Assembly: GCA_000004695.1 (NCBI GenBank)
Contig: CM000150.2
Location: 3,264,001 to 3,328,000 of the forward strand
Source: Dictyostelium discoideum
Taxonomy: Eukaryota
DNA: 64,000 nt
Reading direction: 5' to 3'
Part shown: positions 3,307-47,768 of the stretch, piece after piece
How the letters are laid out: each line of letters starts with the position of its first letter
How positions within the stretch are numbered: position 1 is the stretch's first letter
Position numbers and translations under genes: made by a program
Notes under the pieces: model-generated
The model's database searches: none
Told to the model about the DNA's origin: nothing
The model's input: only the letters and a program-made list of their open reading frames with translations

Positions 3307-3606
3307 ATGAATAAGTTAATTAGTTTATTACTTGTATGCTTAGTTGCTATTGCATTAGTGAATGCTGATTGTGCTATCGATTTTGATAGTGACACAGGTA
3401 AATTTAAATTAAAATAAAAAAAACAAACAAACAAACACTAACTCATTAAAATATTTAGTAAACTCTGTTACATCTAGTGATTGGAGTTGCTTAGCTGCTA
3501 GCAATGATCGTGTTATTATGCAAGTATTTTCTGGTGGTTATGGGTAAATATTATTCTAAAAAAAAAAAAAAACAAAACAATTTTAAAACATATTTCAGTA
3601 CTAATA

Positions 3607-10208: not shown

Positions 10209-13152
10209 ATGAGAAAATTAGTAATATTAATTATTTTATCAATTGTGTGTAGTTTATTTATTGGATCGATTGAATCAGTAGATACTAGTAAATTTAAGAC
10301 TTGTAAAGATTCACACTTTTGTAAAAGAAATAGAGTTTCACATGAAGTTGGAGTAATGAATGAAATGAAATCCAAACAAAATTTTAACATTGTAGAAGGT
10401 TCAATTAAATTGGTAAAGCAAGAGAATACCATTTACTTTGATTTACAAGAACAAAATCAAAAGAGTAATCTATTAACAATGAAACTTGAAATCTATGAAG
10501 GAGGTATCGTAAGAATGAGAGCTCAAGAAAAAGAACCATTATTGAATAAGCAACGTTACCAAGTTCAAGATGTTTTATTGGATACAATTAAAACCGTACC
10601 AATTCAATGGAAACAAGAACCTTCAAAACAATCAAACACTTTTTCATTTAAACATGGTGAAAAGGAGTGTTGTTATGTATTAGTACAATTGGTACCATTT
10701 AAATTGGATGTTTACATTATGAATGAATTGGCAATTACAACCAATAGTGATAATCTATTCCATTTCGAACCAATCTCTGATAAACCACAACCATTACCAC
10801 CAAAAGAAAAAAAATCTGAAGAAGAGAATAAAGAAGCTAATCAAGAAGAAGATAATAATAATAATAATAATGATAACAATGAAGAACAACAAGTTAGTAC
10901 AGAAGGTTATTGGGAAGAAAGATTTGGATCACATCAAGATAGTAAACCAAATGGACCAATGTCAATTGGTATGGATTTCACATTTGTTGGTAGTTCACAT
11001 GTTTATGGTATTCCAGAGCATACTACTCGTTTATCATTAAAATCAACCACTGGAAATGGTATCAATGAACAACCATACCGTCTTTACAATTTAGATGTAT
11101 TCGAGTACGAGATTGATAAAACCATGGCATTGTATGGTCATGTTCCATTAATGATCTCTCATGATACTAAAAAAACAGTTGGTGTATTTTGGTTGAATGC
11201 AGCTGAAACATTTGTCGATATCGAGGATGTAACCACACCAGTATCACCATCAAAGAAAACTCATTGGATTAGTGAATCTGGTATTATCGATGTATTCTAT
11301 TTAACTGGTCCAACACCATCAACAATCTTTAAACAATATGCATATCTAACTGGTACAACTGCATTACCACAAATGTTTTCATTGGGTTATCATCAATGTA
11401 AATGGAATTATAAAGTAAGTTACAATAAAAAAAAAAAAAAAAAAAATTATAATAATAATAATAATAATAATAATAATTAATAAAATACTAATATTATTAT
11501 TATTTTTTTTTATTAAAAATTATTAGTCAGAAGATGATGTTAAACAAGTTGATAATGGATTTGATGAAAATCATATTCCATATGATGTAATTTGGTTAGA
11601 TATTGAACATACAGATGGAAAGAGATATTTCACTTGGGATAATAATAATTTCCCAACACCAGCTGATATGCAAAATATTATTGGTGCTAAACATAGAAAG
11701 ATGGTTACAATCGTTGATCCACATATCAAGAGAGATAACAATTATTATGTTCACTCTGAAGCAACTTCAAAAGGTTATTATATAAAGAATAAGGATGGTA
11801 ATGATTATGATGGTTGGTGTTGGCCAGGTTCTTCATCTTATTTGGATTTCACTAATCCAGAGATTCGTAAATGGTGGGCAACTCAATTTGGTTATGATAA
11901 ATACAAAGGTTCAACACCAAATCTTTACATTTGGAATGATATGAATGAACCATCAGTATTCAATGGTCCAGAAGTATCAATGCATAAAGATGCCAAACAT
12001 CATGGTGGTTTCGAACATCGTGACGTTCACAATCTCTATGGTTACTACTATCATATGGCATCGGCCGATGGTTTGGTTCAAAGAAATGCCGATCAAAATG
12101 ACCGTCCATTCGTTTTATCTCGTGCATTCTATGCTGGTTCTCAAAGAATTGGTGCCATTTGGACCGGTGATAACTCTGCCCAATGGTCACATCTCGAAAT
12201 TTCAAATCCAATGCTTTTATCAATGAATTTGGCCGGTATAACATTTAGTGGTGCCGATGTTGGTGGTTTCTTTGGTAATCCAGATGCTGAACTCTTAACT
12301 CGTTGGTATCAAGCTGGTGCATTCCAACCATTTTTTAGAGGTCATGCCCATTTAGATTCACGTCGTCGTGAACCTTGGTTATTCAATGAACCATACACTA
12401 CCATCATTAGAGAGGCAATCGTCAAACGTTACTCTTACCTTCCATTATGGTATACCACTTTCTATCAAAATACACTCAATGGTGCTCCAGTTATGAGACC
12501 ACTTTGGGTTCAATATCCAAAAGAAGCCAATCTCTTTGATGTTGATGATCATTATTTAATTGGTGATTCACTTTTAGTTAAACCAGTCACTCAACAATCT
12601 TGTAAAACTATGAAAGTCCTCTTACCAGGCCAAAGTGTCAATGAAATTTGGTATGATGTTGATACTGAGAAACCAATCAATGCTGGTGTCATCGAAATTG
12701 ATACTCCTTTAGAAAAGATTCCAGTTTATCAACGTGGTGGTTCAATCATTTCAAAGAAAGAAAGAGTTCGTAGAAGTACCTATCAAATGAGAGATGATCC
12801 ATACACTATTCGTATCGCTTTGGACTCTTCAAAATCTGCTCAAGGTCAATTATACATTGATGATGAACACTCTTTTGATTATAAAAAAGGTAAATTCCTC
12901 TACAGACAATTCACTTTCAAAGATAATGTTCTCTCATTTTCTGATGCCTCAAATAAAAGCTCAACCTCTTACAAACCAAATGTTACCATTGAAAAAATCG
13001 TTATCCTTGGTGTTCAAAAACCTCACTCGATCACTTGTAACATTACTGGTAAAGAAAAATTATCATTTGAATATGATTCAACTCTTTCAAAACTAACAAT
13101 CAGAAAACCAGATTTATTAGTTGATACTGATTTTATTATAAAATTAAATTAA
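10209..13152 (+). CDS. modA: Glucosidase II alpha subunit (neutral alpha-glucosidase AB, GH31); 2 exons 10209..11414 and 11527..13152; signal peptide present
   Basis: GH31 signatures 'WNDMNEP' and 'GADVGGF'; near-collinear similarity to GANAB across both exons (e.g. 'DVIWLDIEHTDGKRYFTWD', 'WCWPGSSSYLDFTNPE', 'WYQAGAFQPFFRGHAH', 'PVYQRGGSII'); donor GTAAGT at 11415, acceptor tattag at 11526; symbol modA is by analogy with the Dictyostelium glucosidase II gene. Confidence 0.9.
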
Positions 13153-13191
13153 ATTAAAAAATAAATAAAAAGAAAACAAACAAATATAATA

Positions 13192-13242
<51 letters not shown>

Positions 13243-13935
13243 GTTTATATAATATATATTTTCTTTTTATTTATATTTTTTATTTTTTTTTTTATTTTTT
13301 TTTTTTATTATTTTTTTTGTCGATAAAGATATTATTTTTAAAAAAACTATGTACAATTTTCTTTTTTGTTTGCGTTTAAATAATTATTTGGAAATGCTTT
13401 GGTAGTTTTTGATGTTTCCTTCTTCAAACTAAATTTATTTTTTTTTTTTTTAAAAAAAAGAAAAAAATTAATCACCAAAACGAACCTTGGATTGTTGGTG
13501 CTTCATTTCTATTTATCACTCGTATTTGTTTTGTTTATTTTTTGGTTCGATGATTTGGTTGGGTGGTTTTTTTTTTTTTCTTTTTTTTTTTCTTTTTTTT
13601 TTTTCTTTTTTTTCTTTTTTATTTTCTTTTTTTTTTTTTTTTCTTCTTAGAAAAATAAATAATATATCTTGGGAAAAAATAAAAAAAATAAAAGAGGTTT
13701 TTTGGTAAAGTTGGGTGTTTCGAAACACAGTTGTTTTCTATTTTAAAAATAAATATGTTGAGAAAAAGTTGTATTTGTTGTTTTAATTATGATATTGTTC
13801 TTTTAGTTTTATAATTGCTGGTATTGTAGTAGTTATTTATTGTGTTATCATTTTAATTTGTTTTATTTTTTTAGATATTTGATTTTCATTTTTTAGATTT
13901 TTGATTTAGTGAGGAGTTTTTTTTTTTTTTTTTTT

Positions 13936-13967
<32 letters not shown>

Positions 13968-13986
13968 GTGGAAGGTGGTTTTTTTT

Positions 13987-14012
13987 TGTTTTGTTTTTGT
14001 TTTTGTTTTTGT

Positions 14013-14043
<31 letters not shown>

Positions 14044-14074
14044 GTTTTGTTTTGTTTTGTTTTGTTTTGTTTTG

Positions 14075-14100
<26 letters not shown>
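13987..14100. repeat. (GTTTT)n/(GTTTTT)n microsatellite
   Basis: 'gttttgtttttgtttttg...gttttgttttgttttg' run; intergenic. Confidence 0.85.
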
Positions 14101-14105
<5 letters not shown>

Positions 14106-14151
14106 TTTCATTTGAAATGAAAATTATATAATATTTATGCTGTTTTCTCCA

Positions 14152-14568
14152 TTATTTCGTATTGGATGAAGTTGGCATATTGTTGTTACTATTTATATTA
14201 ATACTATTGATATTCATATTCATACTATTGCTGCTGCTGTTGTTATTGTTGCTGTTATTATTGTTGCTGTTATTGTTGTTATTATTAGTATTATTATTGT
14301 TATTGTTATTGTTATTATTATTATTAGCTATATCCATTCCATCTAAATCGATTGGTTCATTACTACTACCACCAGCTGAGTTTGTTGCTGCTTGTGCTTT
14401 TAATTCTTCTTCTTTAAGCTCTCTTTCATATTTAATATAAACCTCTGACTGATTATAAATTGAATCTACCCATCCACTAATTGATGTACTTGTCCAATAT
14501 TTACCTGGATTTAAGTTTTGTAATGAAACCGGTCTGAGAGGTGTATGTACAGTGCCTGAATTCATCAT
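14152..14568 (-). CDS. Hypothetical 138-aa protein with N-terminal unique domain and C-terminal poly-N tail (single exon)
   Basis: ORF with in-frame TAA immediately upstream of ATGATG at 14568; unique N-terminal half MMNSGTVHTPLRPVSLQNLNPGKYWTSTSISGWVDSIYNQSEVYIKYERELKEEELKAQ is not low-complexity; remainder encoded by (CAG/CAA/AAT) repeats. Confidence 0.4.
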   Translation of the reverse strand: MMNSGTVHTPLRPVSLQNLNPGKYWTSTSISGWVDSIYNQSEVYIKYERELKEEELKAQAATNSAGGSSNEPIDLDGMDIANNNNNNNNNNNNTNNNNNNSNNNNSNNNNSSSNSMNMNINSININSNNNMPTSSNTK

Positions 14569-14986
14569 TTATATTTTTCTTTCTTTTTTTTTTAATTGTA
14601 GTTTTTTTTTTTATATTTTACTTTTTTTATTATTTTTTCTTTATTTTGTTTTATTATTCTTTTTTTTTCTTACTAAAAAAAAAAAAAAAAACTATCGTTA
14701 TTACTACAACTAATTTCTTTTTTAAATTATAGTACTTATTTAATTTTTACTATATTTTCGTTATAAATTTGTGTATTGTGGATTTGTTGTTGTTGTTGTT
14801 GTTGTTATTGTTATTATGAGGTTTTTAAAATATTTTATATTTATTTTTATTTTTATTTTTTTTATTTTTTTTATTTATTTAATTACACATATACAAAAGA
14901 TAGATATGACTACACATACACAAAATACACAATAAAATTACTTTATAATTTTTATTTTATTTTATTAAGTGATATCTAGTAGTAGG

Positions 14987-15031
<45 letters not shown>

Positions 15032-15590
15032 AAAAAATTTTAAAAATAAAAAAAAAAAATGAAAACAAAAAATTTTTGAAAATATTTTTTTTTTATTTTT
15101 TTTTAATTTTTTTTTTTTCAATCTTTCTCAATTTTTCTATAAAGAAACCACTTTAGGATTAGTTACTTATTAATAGTAATTCCAAAAAAAAAAAGCTTAT
15201 TTGACTTTTTAATTTTTTTTTTTTTTTTTTTACCTTTTTATATATTAATTTTTTTTTTTTTTTCTTTATTTTTTTAATTTTTTTAATTTTTTTTTTTTTT
15301 TTTAATTTTTTTTTTTTAACATTGGGAATGAATTTTAAGAAAGTCGTTTGGAATGAATTTGAAGAAAGTCGTTTGAAAAAAAGTATTATTTACATTATTT
15401 TTATTTATTTTTCTTTGCAAGATATTATTTTTAAAACTTTTTTTTTTTTTTTTTAAAAAGATGGCAAATTCCAAATGTTGTAAAATGCTAATTTTTTACA
15501 AAATAAAATTTCAGTTTTTTACCACATTTAGGTTTGTTGTGTTTTTTAAAAAAATTTATTATGATTTTTTTTTTTTTTATAAACTGCTAT

Positions 15591-25698: not shown

Positions 25699-27350
<1,652 letters not shown>

Positions 27351-27491
27351 CTGTCGGTTTTTTTTTTTTTTATTTTTAATCAAAAAAAAAAAAAAATAAA
27401 AAAATTAAAAATATTAAAAAAAACACCCACTATTGGATTTTCACAAGATATTACTTTTTTTTTTTTTTTTTTTTTTATTTTTCTAAAATTA

Positions 27492-28844
27492 ATGGATTAT
27501 TACCAAAGTGAATTAATCAAACTATTTCAAAAGAGTAATGAAATTTATAAAGATAATAATTTTGAAACTAAATTAAATGAAAAGAATTATAAATTTTTAT
27601 TAGTTTATTTAAATTCAATACATTCAATATTAAAAATTGATATGAAATTAAACATTTATCAATATATCAATATCGAATTTAAAGAATTAATTTTAATATC
27701 AAAAGAATTAATGAAAATTGTATTTGATATAATTCATTCTGGAACATGGAATAATATTGATATTCTATTTAAAGATTTATTTGCATATTCTTCAATTCTA
27801 TATATTTACTCCTTTTTTTTAATTCAATTTAAAAATATAAAAGTTGATAATAATAATAATAATAATATTAATATTAATATCCCAAACCCTATAAAGAAAA
27901 TAATTTTAAAAAAATTAGATTTAGCATTAATATTTGGTGATAAATTATTTAATCAAGTTATAAATCAAATTATTAATTTAATATCAAATAATAATAATAA
28001 TAATAATAATAATTTTTTAAATAATTTTAAAAATGAAAATTATAATAATAATAATGAAAATGAAATAATATTAAATAAAGAAAAACTAATTAAAAGGATT
28101 AGTAGACCACCAAGTTTAAATGAATTTAAAAATGAATATATGATAAAAGGAAATCCATGTGTTATTGAAAATTTAATGAAAGAATGGCCATGTTTTAATG
28201 AAAGAAATTGGAGTGATTTAAATTATTTAAAAAATGTTGCTGGATCAAGACTGGTTCCAATTGAAATTGGTCCAAATTATTTACATGAAAAAATGAAACA
28301 AAAATTAATAAATTTCAATAAATTTATTGATGAATATATAATTTCGAAAAATAGTGATGATGATAATGATGATATTGGTTATTTAGCTCAAACAAAACTA
28401 TTTGAACAAATTCCTCAATTAAGAAATGATATTTTAATACCAGAATATTGTAAAATTAAAATTGGATGTGGTGATGATGATAATGATAATAATAAAGAAG
28501 ATAATGTTGAAATTAATGCTTGGTTAGGTCCAAAAGGAACAGTGACTCCACTTCATTATGATCCAAAACATAATTTTCTTTGTCAAATTGTTGGTAGGAA
28601 ATATATTAAACTATTCTCACCAAAGGAATCAAATAATTTATATCCTCATTTAAACTCAAAATTATTTTTTAATACTAGTATGGTTGATGTTGAAAATCCA
28701 GATCATTCAAAATTTCCATTATTTAAAAATTGTGATTATATTGAATTAATTTTAAATGCTGGTGAAATTCTTTATATTCCACCCACATATTGGCATTTTG
28801 TTAAATCTTTAAGCCAAAGTTTTTCAGTAAGTTTTTGGTGGTAA
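27492..28844 (+). CDS. JmjC-domain protein, JMJD5/KDM8 orthologue (450 aa)
   Basis: C-terminal half near-collinear with JMJD5: 'GYLAQTKLFEQIPQLRNDILIPEYC', 'INAWLGPKGTVTPLHYDPKHNFLCQIVGRKYIKLFSP', 'VDVENPDHSKFPLFKNCDYIELILNAGEILYIPPTYWHFVKSLSQSFSVSFWW'; ATG 27492 (ORF-track start at 27333 lies in oligo-T flank). Confidence 0.85.
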   Translation: MDYYQSELIKLFQKSNEIYKDNNFETKLNEKNYKFLLVYLNSIHSILKIDMKLNIYQYINIEFKELILISKELMKIVFDIIHSGTWNNIDILFKDLFAYSSILYIYSFFLIQFKNIKVDNNNNNNININIPNPIKKIILKKLDLALIFGDKLFNQVINQIINLISNNNNNNNNNFLNNFKNENYNNNNENEIILNKEKLIKRISRPPSLNEFKNEYMIKGNPCVIENLMKEWPCFNERNWSDLNYLKNVAGSRLVPIEIGPNYLHEKMKQKLINFNKFIDEYIISKNSDDDNDDIGYLAQTKLFEQIPQLRNDILIPEYCKIKIGCGDDDNDNNKEDNVEINAWLGPKGTVTPLHYDPKHNFLCQIVGRKYIKLFSPKESNNLYPHLNSKLFFNTSMVDVENPDHSKFPLFKNCDYIELILNAGEILYIPPTYWHFVKSLSQSFSVSFWW

Positions 28845-29314
28845 TTTTTTTTTTTTTTTATTTTTTTTTTTTTTTTTATTTACCAGATCAGCAAATTTTA
28901 TAATTTAAAAAAATAAAAAAAAAAGATATTCCCCTAATTTTTCAAAAGACTTTTTTTATATTTAATTTTTTTTTTTTTTTTTTTTTTAAAAGTCAACGAT
29001 TAAGCATGACAACGCCCAAAATTTTACATTTTTTTTTAATATTTTTTTTTTTATATTTTTTTTTTTTATTTTTTTGTCGTTTATTAATAAAAAAAAAGTT
29101 TAGGCGATTGTTATCTCAAAAAAAAAAAAATAATAAAAAAAATAAAAATACCAATAAAATTTTATTTTGTAATCTCAAAAAATAAAAAACTAAAATTGTT
29201 TATATATTAACCTATACTCACATATATATATATATATTTGCACATATACCAACAATATAAACGTTAAAATTTATTTTTATTAGAAAAAGGATAAATAAGA
29301 AAAAAAAAAAAAAA

Positions 29315-32300
29315 ATGGTAAACTATTTCAACTTATTAGATGAATCAGATGAAGAAGAAACAAATACAACTGTTAAAAAAGATTTAACAGTAGAAACAAC
29401 AGCACCAACAACAACAGCAGTTATTGAAAAAGAAAATAAAGTAAACAACAAAGTTGAAACTAGTACAGCAGCAACATCCGCTTCTTCTTCAACAACAGGA
29501 GGTATTTATGTACCACCACTTAGAACAAGTTCAGAGGCAACAAATAAAGCACCACCTTCACAACATATTGAAATTCAATTTGATGTAAACAAATTTAATT
29601 CAGAAGAAACATTACCAGAGAATTGGATTCTTTGGTACGACACAAAAAAGAATTCCCCACAAGAAGGAGAAAATAATGAATATCTTCAAAATGTTGAAAA
29701 AATTGGTTCTTTTAATTCTTTAAAGGTAATTTATTTTTTTTTTAATTTTATTAATTTTTGCTTATACTAATTATTTACTTTTTTTTTTTTTTCTCTCCTC
29801 TGTCCTTTCTCGTAGCAATTCAAAAATATGTGGGAAAGTTTAAAAACACCATTAGATGTAATTGGTAATATAAGTATTTTCAAAGAAGGTATTGAACCAG
29901 CTTGGGAAGATCCAAAAAATAAAGATGGTGGTAAAATTGTAAGTTCAAAAAATAAAAAAAAAAAAAAAAAAAAAATCGCTAACTTTTTTTCTCTTCTTTA
30001 ATATTACAACTATTATAGACTATAAATTATCTTAAAGATAATGGCGACTTCAATTTTTTATTAAATGCATGGTTCACTTTATTCACAACAATTGTTTTTA
30101 GCACATTCGAAAATTATGAACAATCAGTATGTAACATATTTCTAATCTCACCCTACCCCCTCCCTTTCTTCATCTCTTTTCTACCTTTTACACCACTCAT
30201 TTCCTTCCTTTCCTACTATCCCCTTTTTTATTTTTTTATTTTCAAATATTAATAAAAACTTTTTTTTTTATTTTTTTTTATTTTTTTTTATTTTATATAT
30301 TTATTAATTTCAAAAAAAAAAGAATGGTATTGTTTTATCAATTAGAAGTTGGGGTGCAAGTATTCATTTATGGAATAATAGTTCAGAGAATGATAAAGTT
30401 CAATCAATTAGAGATGTATTCCAAAATATATTATTTGTTAAATATTCAAAGTTTTCACCACATAAAACAGCACTCGATATGAATAAGAATAAAGATCCAA
30501 ATACTAAACAAATAAATAAGAATAAGAAAAGAGATGAACATGGATTCACAATTAAACCAGTCAATACACTATTATCAGTACATCCAACTTTTTCAGGTGC
30601 ATATGAAAAGCAATGGGTATTACCAGAGAATAATAAACCAGATAAATCATTAAATATTATTAACACAAATACTAAACCAAAGAAATCTTCACCATATACT
30701 GTAAACACTGAAGAAAGAAAAGAATCACCTGATATAATAAATGATTCAAATAATATAATAAATAATAACAATAATAATAATAATAACAATAGCAACAATA
30801 ATGAAAATAATAATAATTCAGATAATATAGAAAATGAACAATCTGAACCAATTCCTGAAATTCCATCTGGTGTTAATGCATGGTCAACTGGTATTTTATT
30901 AGGTCAACCAAAAGTTGAAGAATCTCAAAAACAACTCGATGAACAACCATTAGTTGTAAAAGAAGACGAAAAAGAAAATGAAAAAGAAAAAGAAAAAGAA
31001 AAAGAAAAAGAAAAAGAAAAAGAAAAAGAAAAAGAAAAAATTATTGAAAAGAAAGAATCAAAATCAGCTTATTCAAATGCATGGGGTAATAGTAAAATTG
31101 AACAACCAACAACCACACCATCCAATAATAATAATAATAATACCACTAAATCATCAAATACACCAACTCCAATGATTAATACAAATATTGAAATTCCAAC
31201 TGGCGCAAATGCATGGGCAACTGGTAAATTATTAGTTAAACAAGAGGTTGTTGAAGATAAACAATCATTAAATAATGTTGATGGTGCTGCTGTAGCTGCT
31301 TCCACCACCACTATTACTCCTCCACCAGTCGTCACAACTGAAAATAAAGAAAAGAAAGGAAAAACAGAAAAGAAAGAAAAAGAAAATAAAGCACCAACTG
31401 TAGTAATCACAGAAAAGAAAGATTCTTCTCAATCACAAGAAAAACCAATTAAGAGAGTAAGTTCAAAAGAAGTTTTACAAGAAAAACCAATAAAAAGAGT
31501 AAATTCAAAAGAAGTATTACAATCACAACCAACTGAATCATTCTGGGAAGAACCAACACCAATTACTGTTGTTCAACAAACTCAAGTACCAACTAAAGTA
31601 CCAAAGAAAACTATTGAACCAACCCCAACTCCAACACCAACTCCAACCCCAACTCCAACCCCAACTCCAACTCAAACAACAGCTTCAACCTCAACACCAA
31701 CTCAAGTTGATACCTTTTCTAAAGTTGTAAAGAAAGATAAATCATACAAACAAACCAAAACAACAGTTTCATCATGGGGTAGTCCAACTAGTATCGCTGA
31801 TTTAATCGCTTCTCAACCTGAACCAACAACAGTTATTGTTGCTCCAGTTGCAACTGAAGTTACAATTCCAACTCCAACTGCTGCACCTATCTCCACCAAC
31901 ACAGCAACTACTGTCACCACCACCACTACTACCACCTCCCCTACCAATACAACAGCCATTACCCCTACTGCCACTGTTGTAGCAACAGTTGAAAGTGAAG
32001 TTAAATCTGGTGTATTATCAATTAAAGAGAATAAAAAAGTAGAAACTATATCAAGCGTAAATGTCCAAACAAAAGTTGAAAAAGATGAATGGATTTCAAT
32101 TGAAAAGAAACCAAAGACAGCTAAACAATTAGTTGATAAGAAAGAAAAAGATGAAACATCACCATCACTCCTAAACAAAGGTCCAAAAGATAATTTATTA
32201 ATTAGAAATTTATTAGTTGAAGAACCATTAGATTACCCATCACCAATAAAACCATCACAACCAATTAAAAATATTACTAAAGAAGTTAAAAAAGATATTC

Positions 32301-32614
32301 AACCAAAAGAAAATAAAAAAGAAAATCAATTAAAAGAAAATAAAAAAGAAAATAATAATAATAACAACAATAATAACACTAATAATATATCAAAAGAAAA
32401 TAATACTAAGAAGGTTTCAAAATCATCTACTTCAAATACATTAAAAAATAATAATGATAATATAGTCAATTCAACAAATAAACAAACCAACAAATCAACC
32501 ACCACCACATCCGAAAAAGATCTTTCTATAATCTCATCATCTTTAATAATGAATTTAGTTGCTGTAGTTTCAGTTTTAGTTTTAGGTTTTATTCTTAAAT
32601 ATTTATTTGTTTAA
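29315..32614 (+). CDS. eIF4E-family cap-binding protein domain (exons 29315..29725, 29816..29938, 30019..30126) continuing, apparently in frame (exon 30323..32614), into a ~750-aa Ser/Thr/Pro/Lys-rich disordered region that ends in a predicted transmembrane tail anchor
   Basis: eIF4E motifs: 'ENWILWYD', 'FKEGIEPAWEDPKNKDGGKI', 'LLNAWFTLFTTIVFSTFENY', 'NGIVLSIRSWGASIHLWNNS'; donors GTAATT 29726, GTAAGT 29939, GTATGT 30127; acceptors ...cgtag 29815, tattatag 30018, (a)nag 30322; no in-frame stop or obvious donor between the end of the eIF4E fold (~30470) and ORF 30479..32614; C-terminus LIMNLVAVVSVLVLGFILKYLFV*. Confidence 0.7.
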
Positions 32615-33166
32615 ACATATATTAGTTAAATAAAATAAAATATTTTAATTAAAATAAATTAAAAATAAAGAAAAAAAAAAAAGTATTAAAATTAGAAATA
32701 AATAAACTAAACAAAAACAAAATTTTATTAAAAAAAAAAAATATATATATATAAATTCCCCAATCATATGATTTTTCTAAATTTACAAATTCATTTACTA
32801 TTTGATAAATAGTAATATATTAAATTAAATTTTTACAAAAACAAAAAAATTTTTTTTTTTTTTCTTTTCTAAACACAATAATTTAATATTATATAAAATC
32901 AAATAAAAAAAATTATTAATTAATTTTACACCTTAATTCCTTGATAGGGATAAAGGTGTAAAATAAAAAAAAAAAAAAAAAAAAAAAACATAGTATTAAA
33001 TTACAACACGCACCTTTTTTCCCCAACTATTATTACAACAAAATTAAAAATAAGTAAAATTAAATTACAAATTAATAATCATTTTTTTTTTTTTTTTTAT
33101 GTGTTCGGTCAAATATTATAACTTGTATAATATTTAACAATTTTAAAAGTACATTTTTTATTTTTT

Positions 33167-33200
<34 letters not shown>

Positions 33201-33320
33201 GTTTACATAGGATTATTAATTTGAGTTAAATAAATATTACTTAAATAATATTATTTACAGTGGTCGCTTTTTTTTTTTTTTTTCTCGAATATTTAATAAA
33301 GTTTGTTAATGATTTTCGAT

Positions 33321-33636
33321 TTAACAAGTTGTTGGGATTCCATCTGGGTATTGAAGTACATATCCTTTTGTTGGGAAACTAGTAGAATCGAAATATCCTG
33401 GTGGTAATCTAGAAATTTTATTAATTCCATTGTTTGAATTAAAACTATTTGAATTAAATATGTTTTTATTATCGATATTTGATTTATTAAAATTATAGAT
33501 TGATTTTAAAGATGCTAAAATAAAGGAAAAAAAAAAAAATAGTAATTAGTATTAAGTAAAATTATTATACAGATTTTTCAAAAATAAAAAAAAAAAAAAA
33601 AAAAAAGTTTAATTAAATCTTACCAAAAATTGCCAT
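33321..33636 (-). CDS. Putative small protein (~68 aa), 2 exons (33624..33636, 33321..33514); speculative
   Basis: ATGGCAATTTTTG|gtaaga … ttattttag|CATC…; MAIFASLKSIYNFNKSNIDNKNIFNSNSFNSNNGINKISRLPPGYFDSTSFPTKGYVLQYPDGIPTTC*; same 13-nt first-exon architecture as gene 35624..36197. Confidence 0.3.
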
Positions 33637-33765
33637 TTTATTAATTATAATTTTATAGTTTTTTTAAAAAAATATTTTATCTTTTATTTTATTATTATTA
33701 TTTTATTTTGTTTTAATGATCATTGTATTGAAAAAAATAAACTTTAAATAGTTGATTGTTTATGA

Positions 33766-33806
<41 letters not shown>

Positions 33807-34041
33807 AATAAAATAAAAATAAAATAAAAAAAATTAATATATAAATAAATTATATTTATTTGTTATACATAACTTCTTTAGGGTTAAATTCATTATTATT
33901 ATTATTATTTTTATTATTAACATTAATATTATTTGATTTATGATTTGAACTTGTACAAACAACTTTCCTTTTTTAATAATTAACATTAACACAACCCCTT
34001 AAACACACCAACCCCCAAAACATAACACCAACACCACACAT

Positions 34042-34051
<10 letters not shown>

Positions 34052-34096
<45 letters not shown>
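34052..34096. repeat. (CA)n dinucleotide microsatellite embedded in CA-rich tract 34000..34100
   Basis: 'tacacacacacacacacacacacacacacacacacacacacacacac'. Confidence 0.9.
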
Positions 34097-34097
<1 letters not shown>

Positions 34098-35497
34098 ATT
34101 TTAAATATATATATTTTTAAAATATATTTTATATTGTATTTAATATGTTTATATATATATTTTATTTTTTTTAAATATAATATTTATACCAATACACTTC
34201 ATACATTAACAACCCACAAAAAAAAACACACACATACATACATAAAAAAATATCTCACCAACAAACACATTCTCTCTTTTCACCAAAAAAAAAAAAACAA
34301 ATACATGTAAAATAACAAATCTTAAATTATCGTTTAAAAATTATTATTATTATTATTAATTTTATTATATTTTTTTTTTTTTTTCACCGCAATATGATAG
34401 TGGGTGATATCATTCATACTTTTTCAAACATTAAAGAGGTAGATTTAAATTATATTTGTAAGGCAAAATAACAAAAAAAAAAAAAAAGAATTATTTTGAT
34501 AATAGTTATAATAAAGCCAGTGGGGGGAGAGTGGGTGTGGTTTTTTTTTGTTATTATATGCTTGAATAACAAATTATAGAACAACCTCAAAAAACATTAT
34601 GTGAACAACAACAAATAAAAGAAATTTAAAATAAACTCCATAAAAATATCGATTTAAAATCATTTTATCCATTTTTTTTTAAAAAAAAATTGTTTTTATG
34701 GTAAAAAAAAAAAATAAACACCTCATTAAACTCCCAATTATTTCAAATAAAATATCAAAAATGAAAATTACATTAAAATTAACATTGATTTTAAATATTT
34801 TCATATTGTTATTGTCATTTTGTAAGACTTTTAATTTTTTTGTTTTAATTATTTTTGTTTTGGTTTTGGTTTTTTTTTTTTTTTTTTTTTTATTATTATA
34901 ATTTAGTTTACAATTTTGAAAATATCTTTTTTTTTTTCTTTTTTTTTTTATTTTAAAGTCTTATAAAATGAAATTACAAATTTATAGTTTGTAAATTGAA
35001 TTTTTTTAAACTAATTAATATTTTTTCCCCAAGTTTGGTTTAAAATTCAATGAAATTTGATTATTAGATATTTCTCGTCATCTATCATTTTTTTTTTTTT
35101 TAAAATATTTTTTTTTTTTTTCAGATTAGTTTTTTTTTTTAAAACAAAAAATCAATTTTTTTTTTTATTAAAAATAAACATTAAAATATAACCTAATAAT
35201 CTCTTAAATCTTATTTTATTTTATGATACACCATAAAAGATTTTTTTTTTGTCTAATAAAAATCAAAATATAAGAGCAAGGAAAAAGATTTTAATGGTAT
35301 TAATAATTACTTTTTATGATAATTTAACAATTTTAATTTCTTTTGGAAATTAAAAATATTAATTTCTTTACTTTTTTTTTTTTTTTTTTTTTTTTAAAAA
35401 ATAAAAAAATTAATATGATAAGATTTTTATTTTTAAAAGATTTTAAAAGATTTTTGGGTAATTTATTTATTTATTATTAAAAATTGTTTTTTTTCTA

Positions 35498-35557
<60 letters not shown>

Positions 35558-35623
35558 ATATAGATTTTTAATTTTTTATTATTATATTGTTTTTTTATTA
35601 TTATTTTTTTATTTATGCTTTTT

Positions 35624-36197
35624 TTACCACCATGGTTTATCTTTTTTAAATTTAGATAATTCATCAGTTTCGAATAAATAATATGGACGTCCTGGTATCT
35701 TTTGGTTGTATGTCCAATCATTTGTAAACATATCATAATTTTTTTTATATTTTTCACTATTACATTTTTCCATATTACTAATTGTTTCATTATTTTTAAT
35801 TATATTATTTGATTCATCTGATATTGAGTTATGATTAAAATTACTATTTGATGTCGATGCATCGTCATTTGCACAGCCAACATTGTCATCACTTTCAGTT
35901 ATATTTTTTAAATTAATTTCTATTATAGAGTCATCATTTTTTAAATCTATAGATTTATGTTCAACTATATAAAATTAATATCAAAATAAAATCAAATTAT
36001 ATTAATTAATTATCGATCAAATATAATAATAAAATAGATAAAATCGATAAAAATGTAAAACATAAAAAAATAATTATTATTATAAATTATTATTATTATT
36101 TAAAAAATTGATTAAGATTAAAAACAATATTTTTTTTTTTTTTTTTTTTTAGATTTGATATTGTGCGATTTAAAATTAACTTACTAATAATTGTCAT
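35624..36197 (-). CDS. Putative small acidic protein (~117 aa), 2 exons (36185..36197, 35624..35964)
   Basis: ATGACAATTATTA|gtaagt … tatatag|TTGAACAT…; MTIIIEHKSIDLKNDDSIIEINLKNITESDDNVGCANDDASTSNSNFNHNSISDESNNIIKNNETISNMEKCNSEKYKKNYDMFTNDWTYNQKIPGRPYYLFETDELSKFKKDKPWW*; ORF-track ORF 35554..35790 is a different (rejected) frame. Confidence 0.4.
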
Positions 36198-36485
36198 TTT
36201 TTTTTTTTTTTTTTTTTTCCCTTATTATTATTTATTTAAAATTTACTTTATATTAAAAAATGTTAAAATTACTAAAATATTTTTTAATTAATTAAAAAAT
36301 TAAGAATTAAAAAATATAATTAAAAAATAATTAAAAATTATATAAAAAAAAAAAAAAAAAAAAATTTAATAACTAAAAAATATTAAAAAAAAACAATTAA
36401 AAAAATAAATAAAAAAAAACAAATTATAATATATTTAAAATACTATTTTTATTTATGAATATATATATTTATTTTTTAAATTATT

Positions 36486-36562
36486 TTGTCACTCCCACAC
36501 AAAAAATTCACACACTCACCTTTTATTTGTACATTTCACCCACTCCCACACACAAAAATTTT
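36486..36562. promoter_or_regulatory. CA-rich element pair resembling Dictyostelium G-box/CAE (GBF-type) sites, ~300 bp upstream of minus-strand gene starting 36197
   Basis: 'gtcactcccacacaaaaaattcacacactcacc' and 'cacccactcccacacacaaaaa' — strikingly non-AT islands in AT-rich spacer; functional assignment is inference. Confidence 0.3.
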
Positions 36563-37230
36563 CTTTTTATTGCTGGTGGATTGTAAAAAATTGAAAAATA
36601 ACCATACTCATGATAGTAGGTGTGTTTCAACATTACTTTTTCTCATTAAATATTGTGTGTGTTTAATGATTAATCATACAATAGATTCGAATTTAACACC
36701 CTCTGGTTATTTTTTTTATTTTTTTTTATTTTTTTTTTTTTTTTATATAATTATATTTTTTGACTTTATTAATAAAAAAAAATAAATGGGATGGTGTTAT
36801 ATTTTTTTTTGGTAATTTTTTTCTATATTTAATATTATTATTTTTTTTATTTAAAAATATTATTTTCCTTTTTTATTTTATTGAGACCAAAATTAGAACC
36901 ACCGTTTTTAATTGATGTTCCCAATCTTGGTTAATATATTATATATATAAATAAATATATATAAAAATTAAACTAGATACTCAATACTTTTATGAGATAT
37001 ATCAGTTAACCTATTTATTTCAAACTCCCCATTCCATGAAATTTTAAATATAAATAATAACAATAATTTATTTTACAACTGTTTTTTTTCTTTTATTTTT
37101 TTTCTTTTTATTTTTTTTTTTATAATTGATATTTTTTTACAACAATTATTATAAGAATGGTTTTAAGAATGGTTTTTTATTTTTATTTTTATTTTTATTT
37201 TTATTTATTATTATTATTATTTTTTTTTTT

Positions 37231-39141
37231 TTAATTTGTAACATTCATTGGTGGTACTTGTAAATATTCAACATGTTTTTCAATTGAAATTTCTAAACCA
37301 TTTGTATCTATTTCAGTATCAAAAATTTCAACAGATTCTAAACCATCAACTTTTCCAATAATCTCTTGTAATTTATTTTTTGTTACAGTACAATGATCTT
37401 TGGTGATTAAAATCATGAATCCACCACCACCAGCACCAGCCAAAGAATAACCATAAGTATAATCTTTGACAAGGTTAAATATTTGAACTATCCTTGTTGG
37501 TTCAGAACCAACAGCCATGGCTTTCTTTTGATTCCAATATTGTAATAAACAGGAACCAATCTCTTTGATATCACCTCTAATTAAAGCTTCCTTCATTGTT
37601 TTAGTGGTTTGAATGAGTGCTTCAGTATTTGAGAGAATCTCTTGAGTTTTAGCATACCATCTTCTAATTACATCTTGTAAAAGATCTCTTGCCAATCTTG
37701 TTCTACCAGTGTAAATTAATAATAAATGATCATTTATGGTTTGAATGGTTTGATCCGACATTGGTAATTGATTGGCAGTTACCATGATTTTATCTGATTT
37801 GCTATGGAATCTTGTACAGGAACCCTCTTTGAAGCCACCTAAAACACCACCAATTTGATCTTGCCAACCACCACCAGTTGTTAACATTTGTTCAACTTTT
37901 AGCACAGCATGGAATAAATGTTGATCAGAGTATTTATAACCATAAGCATAGGCCATTGCAGTTATAAGACCAGCTGCCAATATACTTGAAGTGCCTAAAC
38001 CTGAACCAGTTGGTAAATCTGAACTTGAGGTTACTTCCATACCACCACCTAAACTCTCCAATTGTTGTTTCAAAGTTTTACAAACTACAACACATGCTGT
38101 AGTGGTTGAGGTTGTAATAGTTTTTGCTTTTCTACCATCGACAGAACTGACATTATTGAAATTAATGCCATCACCATAATCGATTAAACCCAATTGAAGG
38201 AAACATGATTTTAACAATGATCCAGGAGCATGTGGTTGATCATAATCCATTAGATCATTTAATGAACGACAAATGATTGAATCACCAGTTTGACCAACAC
38301 GAAATATTAACACTGGTTCATCCAATCTTCTAACACGTGCTTCAATTGATTTCTTACCACGAATACGAATTGCAGCATTTAAAACCACACCACCATGTTC
38401 ATAACAAATTGGAGGTGTATCTGTCCAACCACCTGCTAAATCGATTCTAACTGGTAAAGAAACACAAATCCAATCTTTTGTTGTTGTTGTTGTTGTCGTT
38501 GGACTATTTGATGGATCTAATGGTTTCAATTCAGTTGGACAAGTATCAACTATATTTTTAATAACGATTTGACCAGCACCTTCATAATGTCTAGCAACAC
38601 GTATCATGCTTTCATAAGAGGTTAACCATTTTCTACGTTCCTTTATCAAAGAGAGGAAACCTTTTCTTTCATCATGATTTCTAAAATAATTGAATGACTT
38701 TTCAAATTGACTATTTCTAGCTGGACCAGAACGTAAACCACCTTGATTATTAACATAGATTGCCAATGTATCAGAGATACATGATAATAATCTACCAGTA
38801 TATTGTAATGGACATGATAATGAAATTCGATCCAATGTTTCCAATGCTTTACTTAATGGAATATTACATTCTGACCATTTCTTTACAAATGGTAAAATCG
38901 ATTGATCAATACCTTGAACTAATATATGTTCAATTTCCATTGAATCAACTTGAAATGATATCTCTCTTCTCCACTTAAATCCTGCTTCAATATCACCTTC
39001 AATCATCCATTTACTTGAATATTCTGATGCTCCTGTTGTAAATGATGTTGTACATGGTTTAATTCTTTCTGAATTTGAAATTATATTATCAACTAAATTA
39101 TTTGTATTAAAACTATAACAATTTTCATTACTATTATTTAA

Positions 39142-39201
<60 letters not shown>

Positions 39202-41445
39202 ATCAATATTATTATCATTATCATTATTATTATTAATATTATTATTAATATTATTATTATTATTATTAATATTATTATTATTATTATTATTACAATTGTT
39301 TGAATTTGAATTTTCAACAATTAAAACACCATCACCAACTTTATTTTCACTTAATTGTTGAACTTGTTGTTTAACTTCTAATTGAGTATAATCTAATAGA
39401 TAAGATTCACCAATGATATCAGCAACAGAGATACGTTTTGAAGATCTCCAACGACCAATTACAGATAATGGTGGTGATTCTTTATTTTGAATCCAAAGTG
39501 AAGCTTCATACATTTTTTCATCTTGATCATTGACAATAATTGGAAAAAGTCTTGCAGTTCTAAGTATTTTAGGTACACCTTTTGACCAAAGTTCATCGGG
39601 TGATACACCACTTGATAGTAAGAATTCTTCCCAATTTCTATTTGCAATTCTCGCAGTTGGATCATTATAGAAAGAGTTTAAATCATCTTCAATGCCTAAT
39701 ACTATTAATGCTTTTGGTGATTCAGAGATTGAATGTTTGATTTTAATTGATTTTAAACGAATTTCATTTACCATCATATTTGAATGAATATGAAAAGTTT
39801 CAAACAATGATTTTACACCGAAAACAATTGAACGTTCACCAATTGACCAATTACCAGTGAGTATAGAATCATAGATCACTGTGGTATCAAATGATTTACC
39901 TTTACCCATAAGAATACTATTTACAATGATACCTTTAACCGAATCTTGACAATCAATGAATGAATGCATCTTTTTTGAAATTATACTTTTTTCACCACTT
40001 GCACCAACACCAATATTTGAATTAATGAAATTTAAATAATCGGTTGGATTCTTTAAATAATAATAGGTTCCTTTAATTTTAATTGATCTAATTGGTGTTG
40101 TTCTAAATGAATCCCAAACCACTTTTCTTGCCTTTCTAACCAACGATTTGTGAGAACCATAGAAATAAGGTTGATTTAAATAACTTTCAAAAGTTTCATT
40201 CTTTGTCATTGAACATAGAATGTCAGGGAAAACACCAAATTTTAAAAGTTGTGAACCCGAGTCAACACCCAAATAAGTGCATGAATCCAATGGTGATGTA
40301 TTATGAAGATACAATAGTTTCTCTGTGGTTTTCTCACAAAAGAATATGATACCAGTATAAATTGAAGCAGTATCATCATTCTTTGAAATGAATCCATTTA
40401 CTTGTAAATACTCCTTTGGTTTCTTATAGGCAATCTCTAAGATTTCACCAGTCTCTTCATTAATTTTACACATACCATGATTTGTATAATAATCGGGGCC
40501 AACATTCATTGTGATCACAGATACACCCGATTGTTTCCAAAGTGTTTTACTCTTTAGATTTGAATCTTCTCTATTGAAAAATATTAAAGATTCAGTACTT
40601 GAAACCATAAAACCTGATTGTAAATTCAATACAATATCATTTAAATTTGATAATAAAATATCAATTGGATAAACTGGTTCATCACCGACATATTTCTTAT
40701 TTGACTTTTCATTTTTATTTTGACCATCTTGTTGTTGTTTATTTTGATTCTGGTGATGTTTAATAATATCAATATTTTTTAAAGGCATCATTGAGAATGA
40801 TTTTGTACATAAATTTACTAATGGTGCATGTTGATGTATACCACCATTTAAAAGTAATAAAATTCTTTTATTCTTTAAAATATCAACATCTAAATAACTT
40901 TTACCTGATAGTGCACTTAACTTTTCAGTTATTACAAATAATGAATTTATCATTGATGATCCACTTCCAACTTTTGTATAATGAGGTTTATGTAAATTCT
41001 CTTCATTTTCATCAATTTCATCACCATTATCATCAATATTATTTTTAATACCATGATTATGATATATTTTATGTTTTTCATTTTTATTATTATTATTATT
41101 ATCATTTTTATTTTTATTATTACTTGATTGATACTGTAATGGAATTTCACCAAATGTCTCTTGTTCTTCTTCATCATCAATTTCTTCTTGTGATTTTGAT
41201 CTTCTTTTTGTTTTCATTGGTCTATAACCAGTATTTATGTATGGATCAGGTATTGATATTAAAAATGTTTTCTTTGAAATTATACCTTCATTTTGTCTAT
41301 TTTGTAATTCTTTTAAAAACTCTTCAGCATGTTCATATTTTGGTGCTGTCACTGCTATAGCATCCCAATAAATATCTTCTTCTCCATTTTCATTTAAATT
41401 TTTATTCTCTCCAATATAATTATGTTGATAACTATGAAAATTCAT
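37231..41445 (-). CDS. L-fucose kinase (fucokinase; N-terminal fucokinase domain + C-terminal GHMP-kinase domain), 1404 aa, apparently single exon with poly-N inserts
   Basis: GHMP motifs 'LPTGSGLGTSSILAAGLI', 'TTGGGWQDQIGG', 'SLAGAGGGGFMILITK'; collinear with fucokinase ('DLAGGWTDTPP', 'DHLLLIYTGRTRLARDLLQDVIRRWYA', 'YTGIIFF…TEKLL'); ATG at 41445, TAA at 37231. Confidence 0.9.
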
Positions 41446-45659: not shown

Positions 45660-45664
<5 letters not shown>

Positions 45665-47768
45665 GATATTGATTTTCATTTGGATGGTAACCTCTTGGTG
45701 GGTGAGTCATATAAGAATAAGGTGGAACTTGTTGATTTAAACGATTTGAAGGAGAATCTTGTTGTGGTGAATTTTGAGATACAACTTGACCTTGTTGTGG
45801 AATTATCATTGGTTGCACTTGAGGATAACCTTGTGGTGGTGGTTGATAAAATCTTTTATTACCACCTTGAATACCTTGGGGTGGCATTGGGTATTGAGGA
45901 TGTGGTACGGCATAAGGTGGGTGAGCACCTTGGAATACAAATGGTTGATTGGGTGGACCATTTGAGATGACTAAATTAGCACCGGGTGGAATACCTTGAA
46001 TGAATTGTGGTGGTGGTTGTTGTTGTTGTTGTTGTGGTTGTTGTTGTGGTGGTAGATGGCCACCTCTTTGGACACCCATTGGACCTCCAGGTTGACCAGT
46101 TTGTTGTTGTTGTTGCTGTTGTTGTTGATACATTGTTTTTGGAGCACCGCCTGCAGATGGTTGAACTACACCGCCCTGTGGCTGTACGATACCTTGAGGT
46201 TGAACGATACCTTGTGGTTGAACGACACCACCGCCACCTGGTTGTAAAGAACCTGGTGGTTTCATTGTGTGTACATTTACACCAGGTGGTACTTGTTGTA
46301 ATTGTGGTGGTACCATATGATGATGTGGTTGTAATTGTGGATGACCTTGTTGTGAATAAAATTGTGGATTGAATTGAAGTTGTGGAGGTGGTTGATGACC
46401 AACCATATGATGATGTGCTCTCATTTGATAGGCTGCAGCATATGGATCCTCTTCATAACGTGGATAAAATGGATCAACCCAATACAATGAAACTTGATCG
46501 GGTGATTCTGGTTGTAATTGTCTCTTTCTCATTGAATCATAATAGATCTCATTGATTGGTGTAACACTATCAGTATTTGATTCAGTTGTTGATTTAAATG
46601 ATGGTTGTGGTTTATTAACTACAACTGGTACAAATTCTTTTGCATTTGGATTTAATTTTAATTTTGATAATTTAGTTACAGTTGTAGTATTATTATTATT
46701 ATTATTGGTGGTATTAGTAGTGGTAGTAGTAGTATTAGATGATGATGATGATTCATCTTTCTTTTCAACTAATGTAGAAGATTGATCTTTATCTTTTTCA
46801 TCAGATTTTTCTTTTTCTTTTTCTTTTTCTTTTTCATCAACTTTTTCTTTTTCTTTTTCCTTTTCTTTTTCTTTATCATCAGATTTATTTTCTGTTAAAA
46901 TTGTAGTTGTGATTGGTGTTGTAGTTGATTTATCATCTTCAGTAGTAGAGGGGGTGGTAGAATTTGTTGCTGTTGTTGTGGTGGTGGTGGTATTTGTAGT
47001 TGGTGGTGAAGTAGTAGAAGTATTTGTACTTGTAGAAGAACCAGATAATGATAATTGAGTTGGAGTTGGACGTGGTGAACCAGAACCAATTAATGGTGAA
47101 CCAGGTCTAGATTTTGATTTAATTACTAAATTACTACTAAAACTTTTTAATCCTTGAGTTTCAGAACCACGATCAACATTGTTAATTTTTAATTTAAAGT
47201 TATTGAAATCATTTACAAATTTCTCTGGTACGGTTGGAGTTGCCAATTCCAATGATAATGCTTTCACCAAACCATGATTTGAAACGATGGTTGGTACTGG
47301 TGATTTTGGAGCTTGATCACTATGGACCGATGAGAGTAATGGTGTGCCGTTTGGACCAACATTGCCACTACCATTTACTGGTGTGGTTGAAATGTTTGAA
47401 CCAGATTTATTCATTGATTTATTAGTTGGTTCCGATAAGATTTGTCTGTATCTTGTGTAAGCAACTGAACGTGGTGATAAATTTTCACGTGGTGATCCCA
47501 TTACATCTTGATCAATTGTTGATTGATGTAAACGTAATTTTGAAATTGTTGGTGATTCTCTATCACCTAATGGTGAATTAACATTTGTATTTGTTGCTGT
47601 TGGTGTATTATTTGTACTTGTAGTTGCAGTAGTAGTAGTTATATTTTTTGGTGTTGATGGTGTTGATGGTGTTGAACTTGTACTAGATGATGATGGTGAT
47701 TCATTTGTTGTTGTAGTAGTTGAAGTGGATGTAGAAGCTGTTGCTGTTGCTGTTGTTGTTGGTTGGGT

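Follow-up and report, generated by a model that had tools for sequence, protein, structure and literature searches.

In this study, we describe a gene of the eIF4E family on the forward strand of a 64,000-nucleotide stretch of Dictyostelium discoideum DNA (assembly GCA_000004695.1, contig CM000150.2, positions 3,264,001 to 3,328,000), hereafter called the window. Its product of 977 amino acids (aa), read from positions 28800-33200 and spliced by hand from four phase-0 exons, carries an eIF4E domain, a linker of ~680 residues that is predicted to be disordered, and a C-terminal hydrophobic segment (Table 1). We consider it very probable that this is one conserved gene with an eIF4E-linker-anchor architecture. 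The original prediction had placed an eIF4E domain, a disordered region, and a C-terminal tail anchor in a single protein, and the existence of four end-to-end orthologues bears this out.

Table 1. Coordinates of the eIF4E-family gene, its parts, and other features of the window
Feature	Position	Strand	Description
RsmB-F methyltransferase	25699-26811	-	Counterpart in C. fasciculata locus L007 at 1904-3493
Cupin_8/JmjC-domain protein gene	27480-28844	+	E=6e-50; immediately upstream of the eIF4E gene
Whole eIF4E-family gene	29315..32614	+	4 exons, 977 aa, stop TAA 32612-32614; orthologue alignment
Exon 1	29315..29725	+	Residues 1-137; N-terminus and start of eIF4E domain
N-terminal motif	29315..29359	+	MVNYFNLLDESDEEE; M-x-NYFN-x-L, then acidic run
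eIF4E domain	29597..30481	+	Residues ~95-267, split by 3 introns; Pfam, 4EHP structure 5nvk
Intron 1	29726..29815	+	90 nt, GT..AG, 19% GC
Exon 2	29816..29938	+	Residues 138-178; holds FKEGIEPAWEDPKNKDGGK (W102/E103 equivalents)
Intron 2	29939..30018	+	80 nt, GT..AG; T. lacteum intron at equal position
Exon 3	30019..30126	+	Residues 179-214
Intron 3	30127..30322	+	196 nt, GT..AG, odd C/T-rich tract; absent in T. lacteum
Exon 4	30323..32614	+	Residues 215-977; last third of eIF4E fold, entire linker, and anchor in one unbroken frame
Linker motif 1	30848..30904	+	PIPEIPSGVNAWSTGILLG; residues 390-408; 13/19 positions invariant in 5 species, including W401
(KE)n repeat	30958..31039	+	(AAAAGA)x13.7; not conserved in orthologues
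Linker motif YSNAWGNSK	31070..31096	+	W468; orthologues have NAWSSNK after motif 2
Linker motif 2	31190..31234	+	EIPTGANAWATGKLL; residues 504-518; N510, A511, W512, T514, G515 invariant
Tandem duplication EKPIKRV(S/N)SKEVLQ	31435..31522	+	42-nt unit x2.1
Linker motif TESFWEEP	31535..31558	+	W622, E623 invariant
(TP)n repeat	31619..31703	+	CCAACT-type repeats
Linker motif	31766..31819	+	SSWGSPTSIADLIASQPE; W699 invariant; P0001 counterpart is a short predicted helix
Linker block	32015..32116	+	LSIKENKKVE...KDEWISIEKKPK; I781, K782, E783, K785, K786, E803, W804, K812 invariant
Linker motif	32189..32254	+	DNLLIRNLLVEEPLDYPSPIKP; L844, V846, E847, P849, P855 invariant
Putative transmembrane anchor	32543..32611	+	LIMNLVAVVSVLVLGFILKYLFV; residues 955-977; hydropathy, AlphaFold helix, conservation
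Fucose pyrophosphorylase + GHMP kinase fusion	37231-41445	-	Counterpart in C. fasciculata locus L007 at 11424-15133
613-aa open reading frame	45660-47501	-	Weak PAM2 (PABP-interacting) motif match, E=1.1e-4, residues 280-292
tRNA-Pro (TGG)	50085-50155	-	ARAGORN and Rfam

All three introns are of the GT..AG type and interrupt the frame in phase 0, with a GC content of 16-22% as against 25-31% in the exons. The start ATG at 29315 lies within an A-run. The first residues of the product, MVNYFNLL, align with the N-termini of all orthologues and the stop coincides with the orthologue ends, so that both ends of the gene are fixed. Within the N-terminal motif, M1, N3, Y4, F5, N6, L8, D12, and E13 are invariant in all five species of the orthologue alignment, a conservation which, on the alignment, fixes the start codon. 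Each of the three splice junctions falls inside a gapless conserved block, as seen at the junction of exons 1 and 2 between GSFNSLK and QFKNMWESL. Exon 4 lies within a stop-free stretch of 2304 nucleotides (nt), whereas 50 shuffles of the window yielded none longer than 444 nt, and the probability of 763 codons without a stop is ~2e-31 at the window composition of 78% AT; the earlier view that this ~2.3-kb frame exceeds chance is thus upheld. It had also been proposed that three exons encode the eIF4E fold. The three exons are as proposed, but the fold is not complete within them, since residues 215-266 (NGIVLSIRSWGASIHLWN...KYSKFSPHKTAL), which make up its last two strands and last helix, are encoded by the first ~52 codons of exon 4. 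Because the end of the fold and the tail lie in one exon, the fusion is independent of any intron call. As a separate observation, the C/T-rich tract of intron 3 extends over ~110 nt (ctcaccctaccccctccctttcttcatctcttttctacc...), a feature that sets it apart from the A/T-only introns 1 and 2.

The four proteins that are colinear end to end with the window protein are P0002 of Tieghemostelium lacteum (808 aa), P0003 of Cavenderia fasciculata (923 aa), P0004 of Acytostelium subglobosum (849 aa), and P0001, a dictyostelid-like sequence from JGI samples (818 aa). An orthologue comparison had been suggested as a check on the gene, and the whole layout proves to be shared by these four dictyostelid orthologues. 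When 1.84 billion cluster representatives were searched exhaustively with a profile, full-length matches were limited to P0001-P0004, and the other ~1500 matched the eIF4E part alone. An exact-sequence look-up of the spliced 977-aa protein gave no match, and a word-indexed search for homologues of the eIF4E domain by itself gave none among 23 candidates, the latter outcome being one that we ascribe to a limitation of the index. The exon structure is conserved as well: P0002 aligned onto the window by tblastn reproduces the limits of exons 3 and 4 to the base, and the T. lacteum gene has introns that match introns 1 and 2 of the window gene and lacks intron 3; its last exon (residues 177-808) begins within the eIF4E domain and extends through the anchor. 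A T. lacteum transcript contig of 2533 nt (run ERR3252993) contains the complete unbroken open reading frame (ORF) with untranslated regions, and its alignment to the genome is broken into three blocks by gaps of 100 and 61 nt, which have the size of introns and identify it as a spliced mRNA. Gene order is also shared with C. fasciculata, where an RsmB-F methyltransferase gene lies upstream, and a fucose pyrophosphorylase and GHMP kinase fusion downstream, of the eIF4E gene. The orthologues bear the GenBank name "eukaryotic translation initiation factor 4E family protein", and given these names the gene itself is not new.

The alternative raised at the outset is that two genes were joined through a missed intron or terminal exon, that is, that a short eIF4E gene ends near 30480 and is followed by a separate gene for an S/T/P/K-rich membrane protein. 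Intron 3 is long for this genome and odd in composition, and the in-frame ATG at 30479 could begin an ORF of 711 aa. However, this explanation has to contend with an exon that encodes both the tail and the final 52 residues of the eIF4E fold, with colinearity of the orthologues throughout their length, and with a spliced T. lacteum transcript that holds the whole ORF, of which residues 177-808 form a single exon. Moreover, the 818-aa ORF of P0001 is unbroken on seven JGI contigs of 2.6-2.8 kb, four of which were read and found to carry flanking sequence resembling untranslated regions, and Trinity transcripts of other amoebozoans likewise link eIF4E to a C-terminal anchor. We therefore set the two-gene explanation aside as extremely improbable.

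The eIF4E domain, the linker, and the anchor

The Pfam family IF4E (PF01652) matches residues 100-253 over positions 2-150 of its 158-position profile (E=8.8e-33; 113.7 bits against a cut-off of 28.7), and no further Pfam family is found in the 977-aa product even at E<=1. Among solved structures, 34 eIF4E chains match the domain. The nearest to residues 95-267 are those of human eIF4E2/4EHP (5nvk, E=8e-19; 2jgb; E~1e-18), and canonical eIF4E ranks behind them. In mapping single residues we use human eIF4E1 numbering, with human eIF4E1 and 4EHP as reference sequences whose numbering was checked. At the cap-contact positions, the window protein and all four orthologues have Tyr in place of W56, W102, E103, Lys in place of R112, R157, and W166, which is the pattern of 4EHP; an equal pattern is seen in an alignment of 162 eIF4E domains. 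The dorsal site for eIF4G and 4E-binding proteins (4E-BPs) has been altered at six positions in the window protein (H37 to Glu, P38 to Thr, W73 to Lys, L131 to Phe, E132 to Thr, and L135 to Thr). The same six positions are replaced in each orthologue, with an identical residue at W73, L131, and L135 and, in three of the four, at E132, whereas the residues at H37 and P38 are variable. Replacement of W73 by a non-aromatic residue disrupts the binding of eIF4G and 4E-BPs (PMC3388326). The notion that the tail might provide an eIF4E-binding motif in cis was dropped, since a regular-expression scan of the window protein and P0001-P0004 found no canonical YxxxxL-Phi motif in any of the five.

Members of Class I, the canonical initiation factors, have Trp at positions 43, 46, 56, 73, 102, 113, 130, and 166, including the S/TVxxFW motif for eIF4G (PMC3388326); in the window protein W56 is Tyr, W73 is Lys, and W113 is Ile, and the eIF4G motif reads SLKQFK. 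Class II is defined by Tyr, Phe, or Leu at W43 together with Tyr or Phe at W56 (PMC3388326). The window protein has the Tyr at W56, but W43 stays Trp in all five species, the closest structures being nonetheless those of 4EHP. By these residue rules it belongs to neither Class I nor Class II. Class III, which is known mainly from chordates and whose mouse member eIF4E3 binds eIF4G, keeps W43 and has Cys or Tyr at W56 (PMC3388326), and the window protein agrees with this rule, although in residue pattern alone, the tree having no eIF4E3 sequence. eIF4E3 itself is short and soluble, and the window protein has lost the eIF4G site. The likeness to eIF4E2/4EHP consists of Tyr at W56, Lys at R112, the loss of both K159 and K162, the best structural match, and an expected behavior in which the cap would be bound without the building of eIF4F. 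In contrast, 4EHP is a soluble protein of ~245 aa that has Tyr at W43 and keeps W73 (its W95) for 4E-BP, GIGYF, and 4E-T, whereas in the window protein, which is 977 aa in length and predicted to be membrane-anchored, W43 is retained and W73 is replaced by Lys.

Lys, Thr, Asn, Glu, Ser, and Pro make up 67% of residues 269-950, and this composition supports disorder of the linker independently of AlphaFold. In the AlphaFold2 model of the exon 4 product, only two elements are structured, namely the eIF4E helix that closes the fold and a helix at the C-terminus, and the predicted local distance difference test score (pLDDT) of everything between them is <50; the model of orthologue P0001 gives an equivalent picture, with linker pLDDT <50 and a confident C-terminal helix. 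The (KE)n and (TP)n repeats and the two duplicated motifs that had been reported are all present, the copies of IP(S/T)G(V/A)NAW(S/A)TG being at residues 394-407 and 505-518. Identity to the orthologues is 52-66% in the eIF4E domain and 30-67% in the anchor, and 19-26% in the linker. Nevertheless, islands of conservation stand out within the linker, namely PEIPSGVNAWSTG(I/L)LLG, which occurs twice, NAWxxSK, FWEE, SxWxxPxSI..L, L.IKE.KK...DEWxSxEKKPK, and LLIRNLLVEEPL(D/E)YPSP; candidate binding sites for partners are PEIPSGVNAWSTGLLLG, FWEE, DEWxSxEKKPK, LLIRNLLVEEPLDYPSP, and, at the N-terminus, MVNYFNLL with its acidic run. Five of the seven linker Trp residues are invariant in the five species, as compared with 39 of all 680 linker positions (hypergeometric p=9e-6), and the Trp contexts are NAWSTG, NAWGNS, SFWEE, SSWGSP, and DEWISI. 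In their pattern of conservation, the linker islands behave as Trp-anchored short linear motifs, and these Trp-centred motifs probably bind partners. Scaffolds of the GW182/TNRC6 type are built on a disordered region with conserved Trp flanked by small or polar residues, and the window linker may resemble them in its conserved Trp, its small or polar flanks, and its islands of conservation. However, it has 7 Trp only (a density of 1%), few GW or WG pairs, and no sequence homology to these scaffolds.

The sole segment of the window protein with a mean Kyte-Doolittle hydropathy of >=1.6 over 19 residues is 954-972 of 977 (mean 2.63), the next-best value, 1.28, lying inside the eIF4E fold. This is consistent with the 23-residue hydrophobic tail that had been pointed out at residues 955-977. 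In each of the five species, the same scan marks one hydrophobic segment, located at the C-terminus, and leaves the N-terminus free of any. No N-terminal signal sequence is detected by Kyte-Doolittle hydropathy, and the N-terminus is acidic (MVNYFNLLDESDEEE). AlphaFold2 models residues 739-762 of the exon 4 product (953-976 of the full-length protein) as a helix with pLDDT 85-92, and L966, G969, and L972 are invariant in the orthologue alignment. We infer a tail-anchor topology, with the N-terminal part facing the cytosol. A glycosylphosphatidylinositol anchor was rejected as an explanation of the C-terminal hydrophobic segment because an N-terminal signal sequence is lacking. The 18-residue transmembrane domain (TMD) of the window protein has a grand average of hydropathy (GRAVY) of 2.82 and would be followed by a luminal tail, KYLFV, with a charge of +1; in the five species, the GRAVY of the TMD core is 2.6-2.9, and 0-6 residues with a net charge of 0 to +1 follow. 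Targeting to the endoplasmic reticulum (ER) is supported, in yeast as in mammals, by a hydrophobic TMD combined with a low tail charge, the yeast threshold being GRAVY >1.75 (PMC5450235). By extrapolation from these systems, the anchor favors the ER over mitochondria, and the ER is the most likely address.

Anchored relatives in the eIF4E family

It seems that the window protein is not alone in joining an eIF4E domain to a C-terminal anchor. Our sample consisted of the 150 top-ranking hits to an anchor-containing profile, together with their cluster mates (162 domains in all), and transmembrane segments were called by a hydropathy threshold. In this sample, 63 of the 162 domains belong to a protein with a C-terminal hydrophobic segment at most 70 residues from the end and none at the N-terminus, P0084, with several segments, being the sole exception; removal of near-duplicates leaves 52 anchored proteins. 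In a neighbour-joining tree of the domains, the anchored eIF4Es group together (in leaf order, they account for ~62 of the final ~85), whereas the ~77 canonical or 4EHP-like leaves include one anchor hit only, which looks like a false positive. Anchored members occur as Trinity transcripts in Flabellula baltica (P0052), Thecamoeba quadrilineata (P0123), Gocevia fonbrunei (P0034), and Protostelium nocturnum (P0048), and as a second dictyostelid paralogue family in Polysphondylium violaceum (P0005) and Dictyostelium purpureum (P0074), to which P0058 also belongs; about 40 others are metagenome or metatranscriptome contigs. These findings suggest that a wider class of tail-anchored eIF4Es exists.

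In layout the anchored relatives resemble the window protein, with the eIF4E domain followed by 60-700 linker residues and then by one hydrophobic segment at the C-terminus. They also have in common with it W43, Tyr or Phe at position 56, W76 (46 of 52), and K112. They differ in that their linkers are unrelated in sequence, only P0001-P0004 matching the window tail, and in that 33 of the 52 keep W73, unlike the window family with its Lys. Outside the window family, Trp-rich linkers occur only in P0028 and in P0052 of Flabellula, and most other anchored relatives are devoid of linker Trp motifs. A Trp-rich linker as a general trait of anchored eIF4Es was accordingly rejected, linker Trp amounting to 0.67% in anchored and 1.04% in non-anchored proteins. 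When a profile of 33 anchored eIF4E domains was used in a homologue search, it returned only short fungal and metazoan proteins of the eIF4E2 type, and the query members themselves were not recovered.

Several members of the sample merit mention in their own right. In the second paralogue family, the 1215-aa P0084 is joined to a multi-pass region with ~7 hydrophobic segments, which it probably owes to a gene model that runs on into a downstream gene. P0005 of P. violaceum keeps W73, L131, and L135 and has YNEERLV, a YxxxxL-Phi sequence, at residue 593 of its own linker, so that an eIF4E-binding motif in cis is a possibility in that family. Four 4EHP-like proteins in which no anchor was detected (P0051, P0116, P0090, and P0117) have tails rich in Trp flanked by Gly, Ser, or Arg (RPAWGNV, GGWRGG, GSAWGRK), and may represent an independent joining of an eIF4E2-type domain to Trp motifs.

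Proposed function and alternative explanations

We propose that the window protein would enter its membrane, most likely that of the ER, after translation and by the tail-anchor route, possibly of the GET/TRC type, with its N-terminal part in the cytosol, as its topology suggests. The eIF4E domain would bind the m7G cap in the manner of eIF4E2/4EHP, which we propose because the equivalents of W56 (as Tyr), W102, E103, R112 (as Lys), R157, and W166 are kept. With Lys at W73 and replacements at H37, P38, L131, E132, and L135, the canonical dorsal site would be unable to receive eIF4G or 4E-BPs. Capped mRNAs would thus be caught at the membrane surface on a long flexible tether that does not nucleate eIF4F, partners or effectors would dock at the conserved linker motifs, and the outcome would be anchoring or storage of mRNA, or cap-competitive repression, rather than canonical initiation. 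Localized translation and the anchoring of mRNA at the ER or mitochondria had been put forward as possible roles, and of these the residues favor anchoring, or else repression, over eIF4G-dependent translation. Taken as a whole, an ER tail-anchored, cytosol-facing cap binder that holds capped mRNAs without eIF4F and recruits effectors through its linker is, in our judgment, somewhat more probable than improbable. Proteins that bring mRNA or the translation machinery to the ER by means of an anchor and a long cytosolic region are known, among them ER tail-anchored ribosome or mRNA binders such as LRRC59 as well as p180/RRBP1, but p180 is anchored N-terminally, unlike the window protein, and none of this type is known to have an eIF4E fold or to recognize the cap.

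Several points weigh against this proposal. Cap binding, membrane insertion, the organelle, and the effect on translation are all what we infer from the residues of the protein. In eIF4E1 the cap phosphates are contacted by K159 and K162; the window protein has Trp and Ser at these positions, and its cap affinity may be low given this loss, although 4EHP is also devoid of both. The AlphaFold alignments held 5-6 sequences and gave a mean pLDDT of ~40, and low pLDDT is weak evidence for disorder. The anchor-targeting rules were derived from yeast and mammals, not Dictyostelium. The clustering of anchored eIF4Es comes from a simple neighbour-joining tree built on the best 150 hits of an anchor-containing profile. 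Finally, the loss of the dorsal site is compatible with a non-canonical activator bound elsewhere, such as at the linker motifs.

This last point leads to an alternative in which the protein would activate translation locally at the ER or another organelle, with an eIF4G-like or other scaffold bound through a non-canonical surface or the linker motifs. The cap-binding residues are intact, the conserved linker motifs could bind a scaffold, W76, one helical turn past position 73 and kept in most anchored relatives, might rebuild a binding surface, and W73 itself persists outside the window family in many anchored relatives (33 of 52). However, within the window family six dorsal-site residues have been replaced together and the replacements are conserved, and we regard local activation as unlikely. 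The address may also be other than the ER. Capped mRNAs would then be tethered at the mitochondrial outer membrane or another organelle, as the single Lys or Arg near the C-terminus of all orthologues and the derivation of the targeting rules outside Amoebozoa would allow; the TMD hydropathy is well over the yeast ER threshold and the tail charge is low, which makes such an address quite unlikely.

It is also conceivable that the eIF4E fold is degenerate or has been repurposed, the protein being mainly an adaptor at an organelle surface (a tether, a motor or coat adaptor that would work through Trp-acidic motifs, or a selective-autophagy receptor that would work through the N-terminal YFNL-acidic motif), with cap binding secondary or lost. 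The invariant N-terminal MxNYFNxL and acidic run contain a Y-x-x-L core, which may resemble an Atg8-interacting motif (LC3-interacting region, LIR), and we likewise presume a likeness of FWEE and DEW in the linker to Trp-acidic motifs. The anchor sequence is itself conserved, including Asn and Gly, which suggests more than passive anchoring, and K159 and K162 are lost. However, the retention of Y56, W102, E103, and W166 plus K112 and R157 across ~50 anchored relatives argues for selection on cap binding, so that we hold an adaptor role to be doubtful. A further scheme, very unlikely as it stands, joins two claims: that tail-anchored eIF4Es are an ancient, unrecognised class spread throughout Amoebozoa and perhaps wider, and that the Trp motifs of the dictyostelid linker act like those of GW182 in recruiting CCR4-NOT (through CNOT9/NOT1) and/or Argonaute. 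The window protein would then be an ER-resident repression machine, in which a 4EHP-like clamp is combined with a silencing or deadenylation platform.

Other features of the window and significance

Downstream of the eIF4E gene, positions 32615-37230 form a region of 4.6 kb with no ORF of >=100 aa and a GC content of 7.5-22%, which, for this window, appears to be a long intergenic interval; the corresponding interval in C. fasciculata holds a dolichol kinase gene. The 613-aa ORF further downstream, with its weak match to a motif that interacts with the poly(A)-binding protein (PABP), may be another gene of mRNA metabolism. An Rfam scan of the 64-kb window found nothing beyond the one tRNA.

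A survey of full-text literature on eIF4E with membrane anchoring, Dictyostelium, Amoebozoa, and 4EHP, together with a review of protist eIF4Es that notes the under-sampling of amoebozoan members (PMC3388326), turned up no description of a membrane-anchored eIF4E. The design is kept in four dictyostelid orthologues and recurs in a second paralogue family and in four other amoebozoans, and for this reason we think that it reflects a real cellular function and not a curiosity of one genome. eIF4E-family proteins are usually regarded as small soluble factors, and the localization of mRNA to membranes is normally attributed to signal sequences, RNA-binding proteins, and ribosome receptors. If our proposal is true, a cap-binding domain bolted to a membrane would provide a direct hold on mRNA at an organelle surface, independent of the mRNA sequence and away from eIF4F. 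D. discoideum is a tractable model, and the idea is directly testable in this organism.

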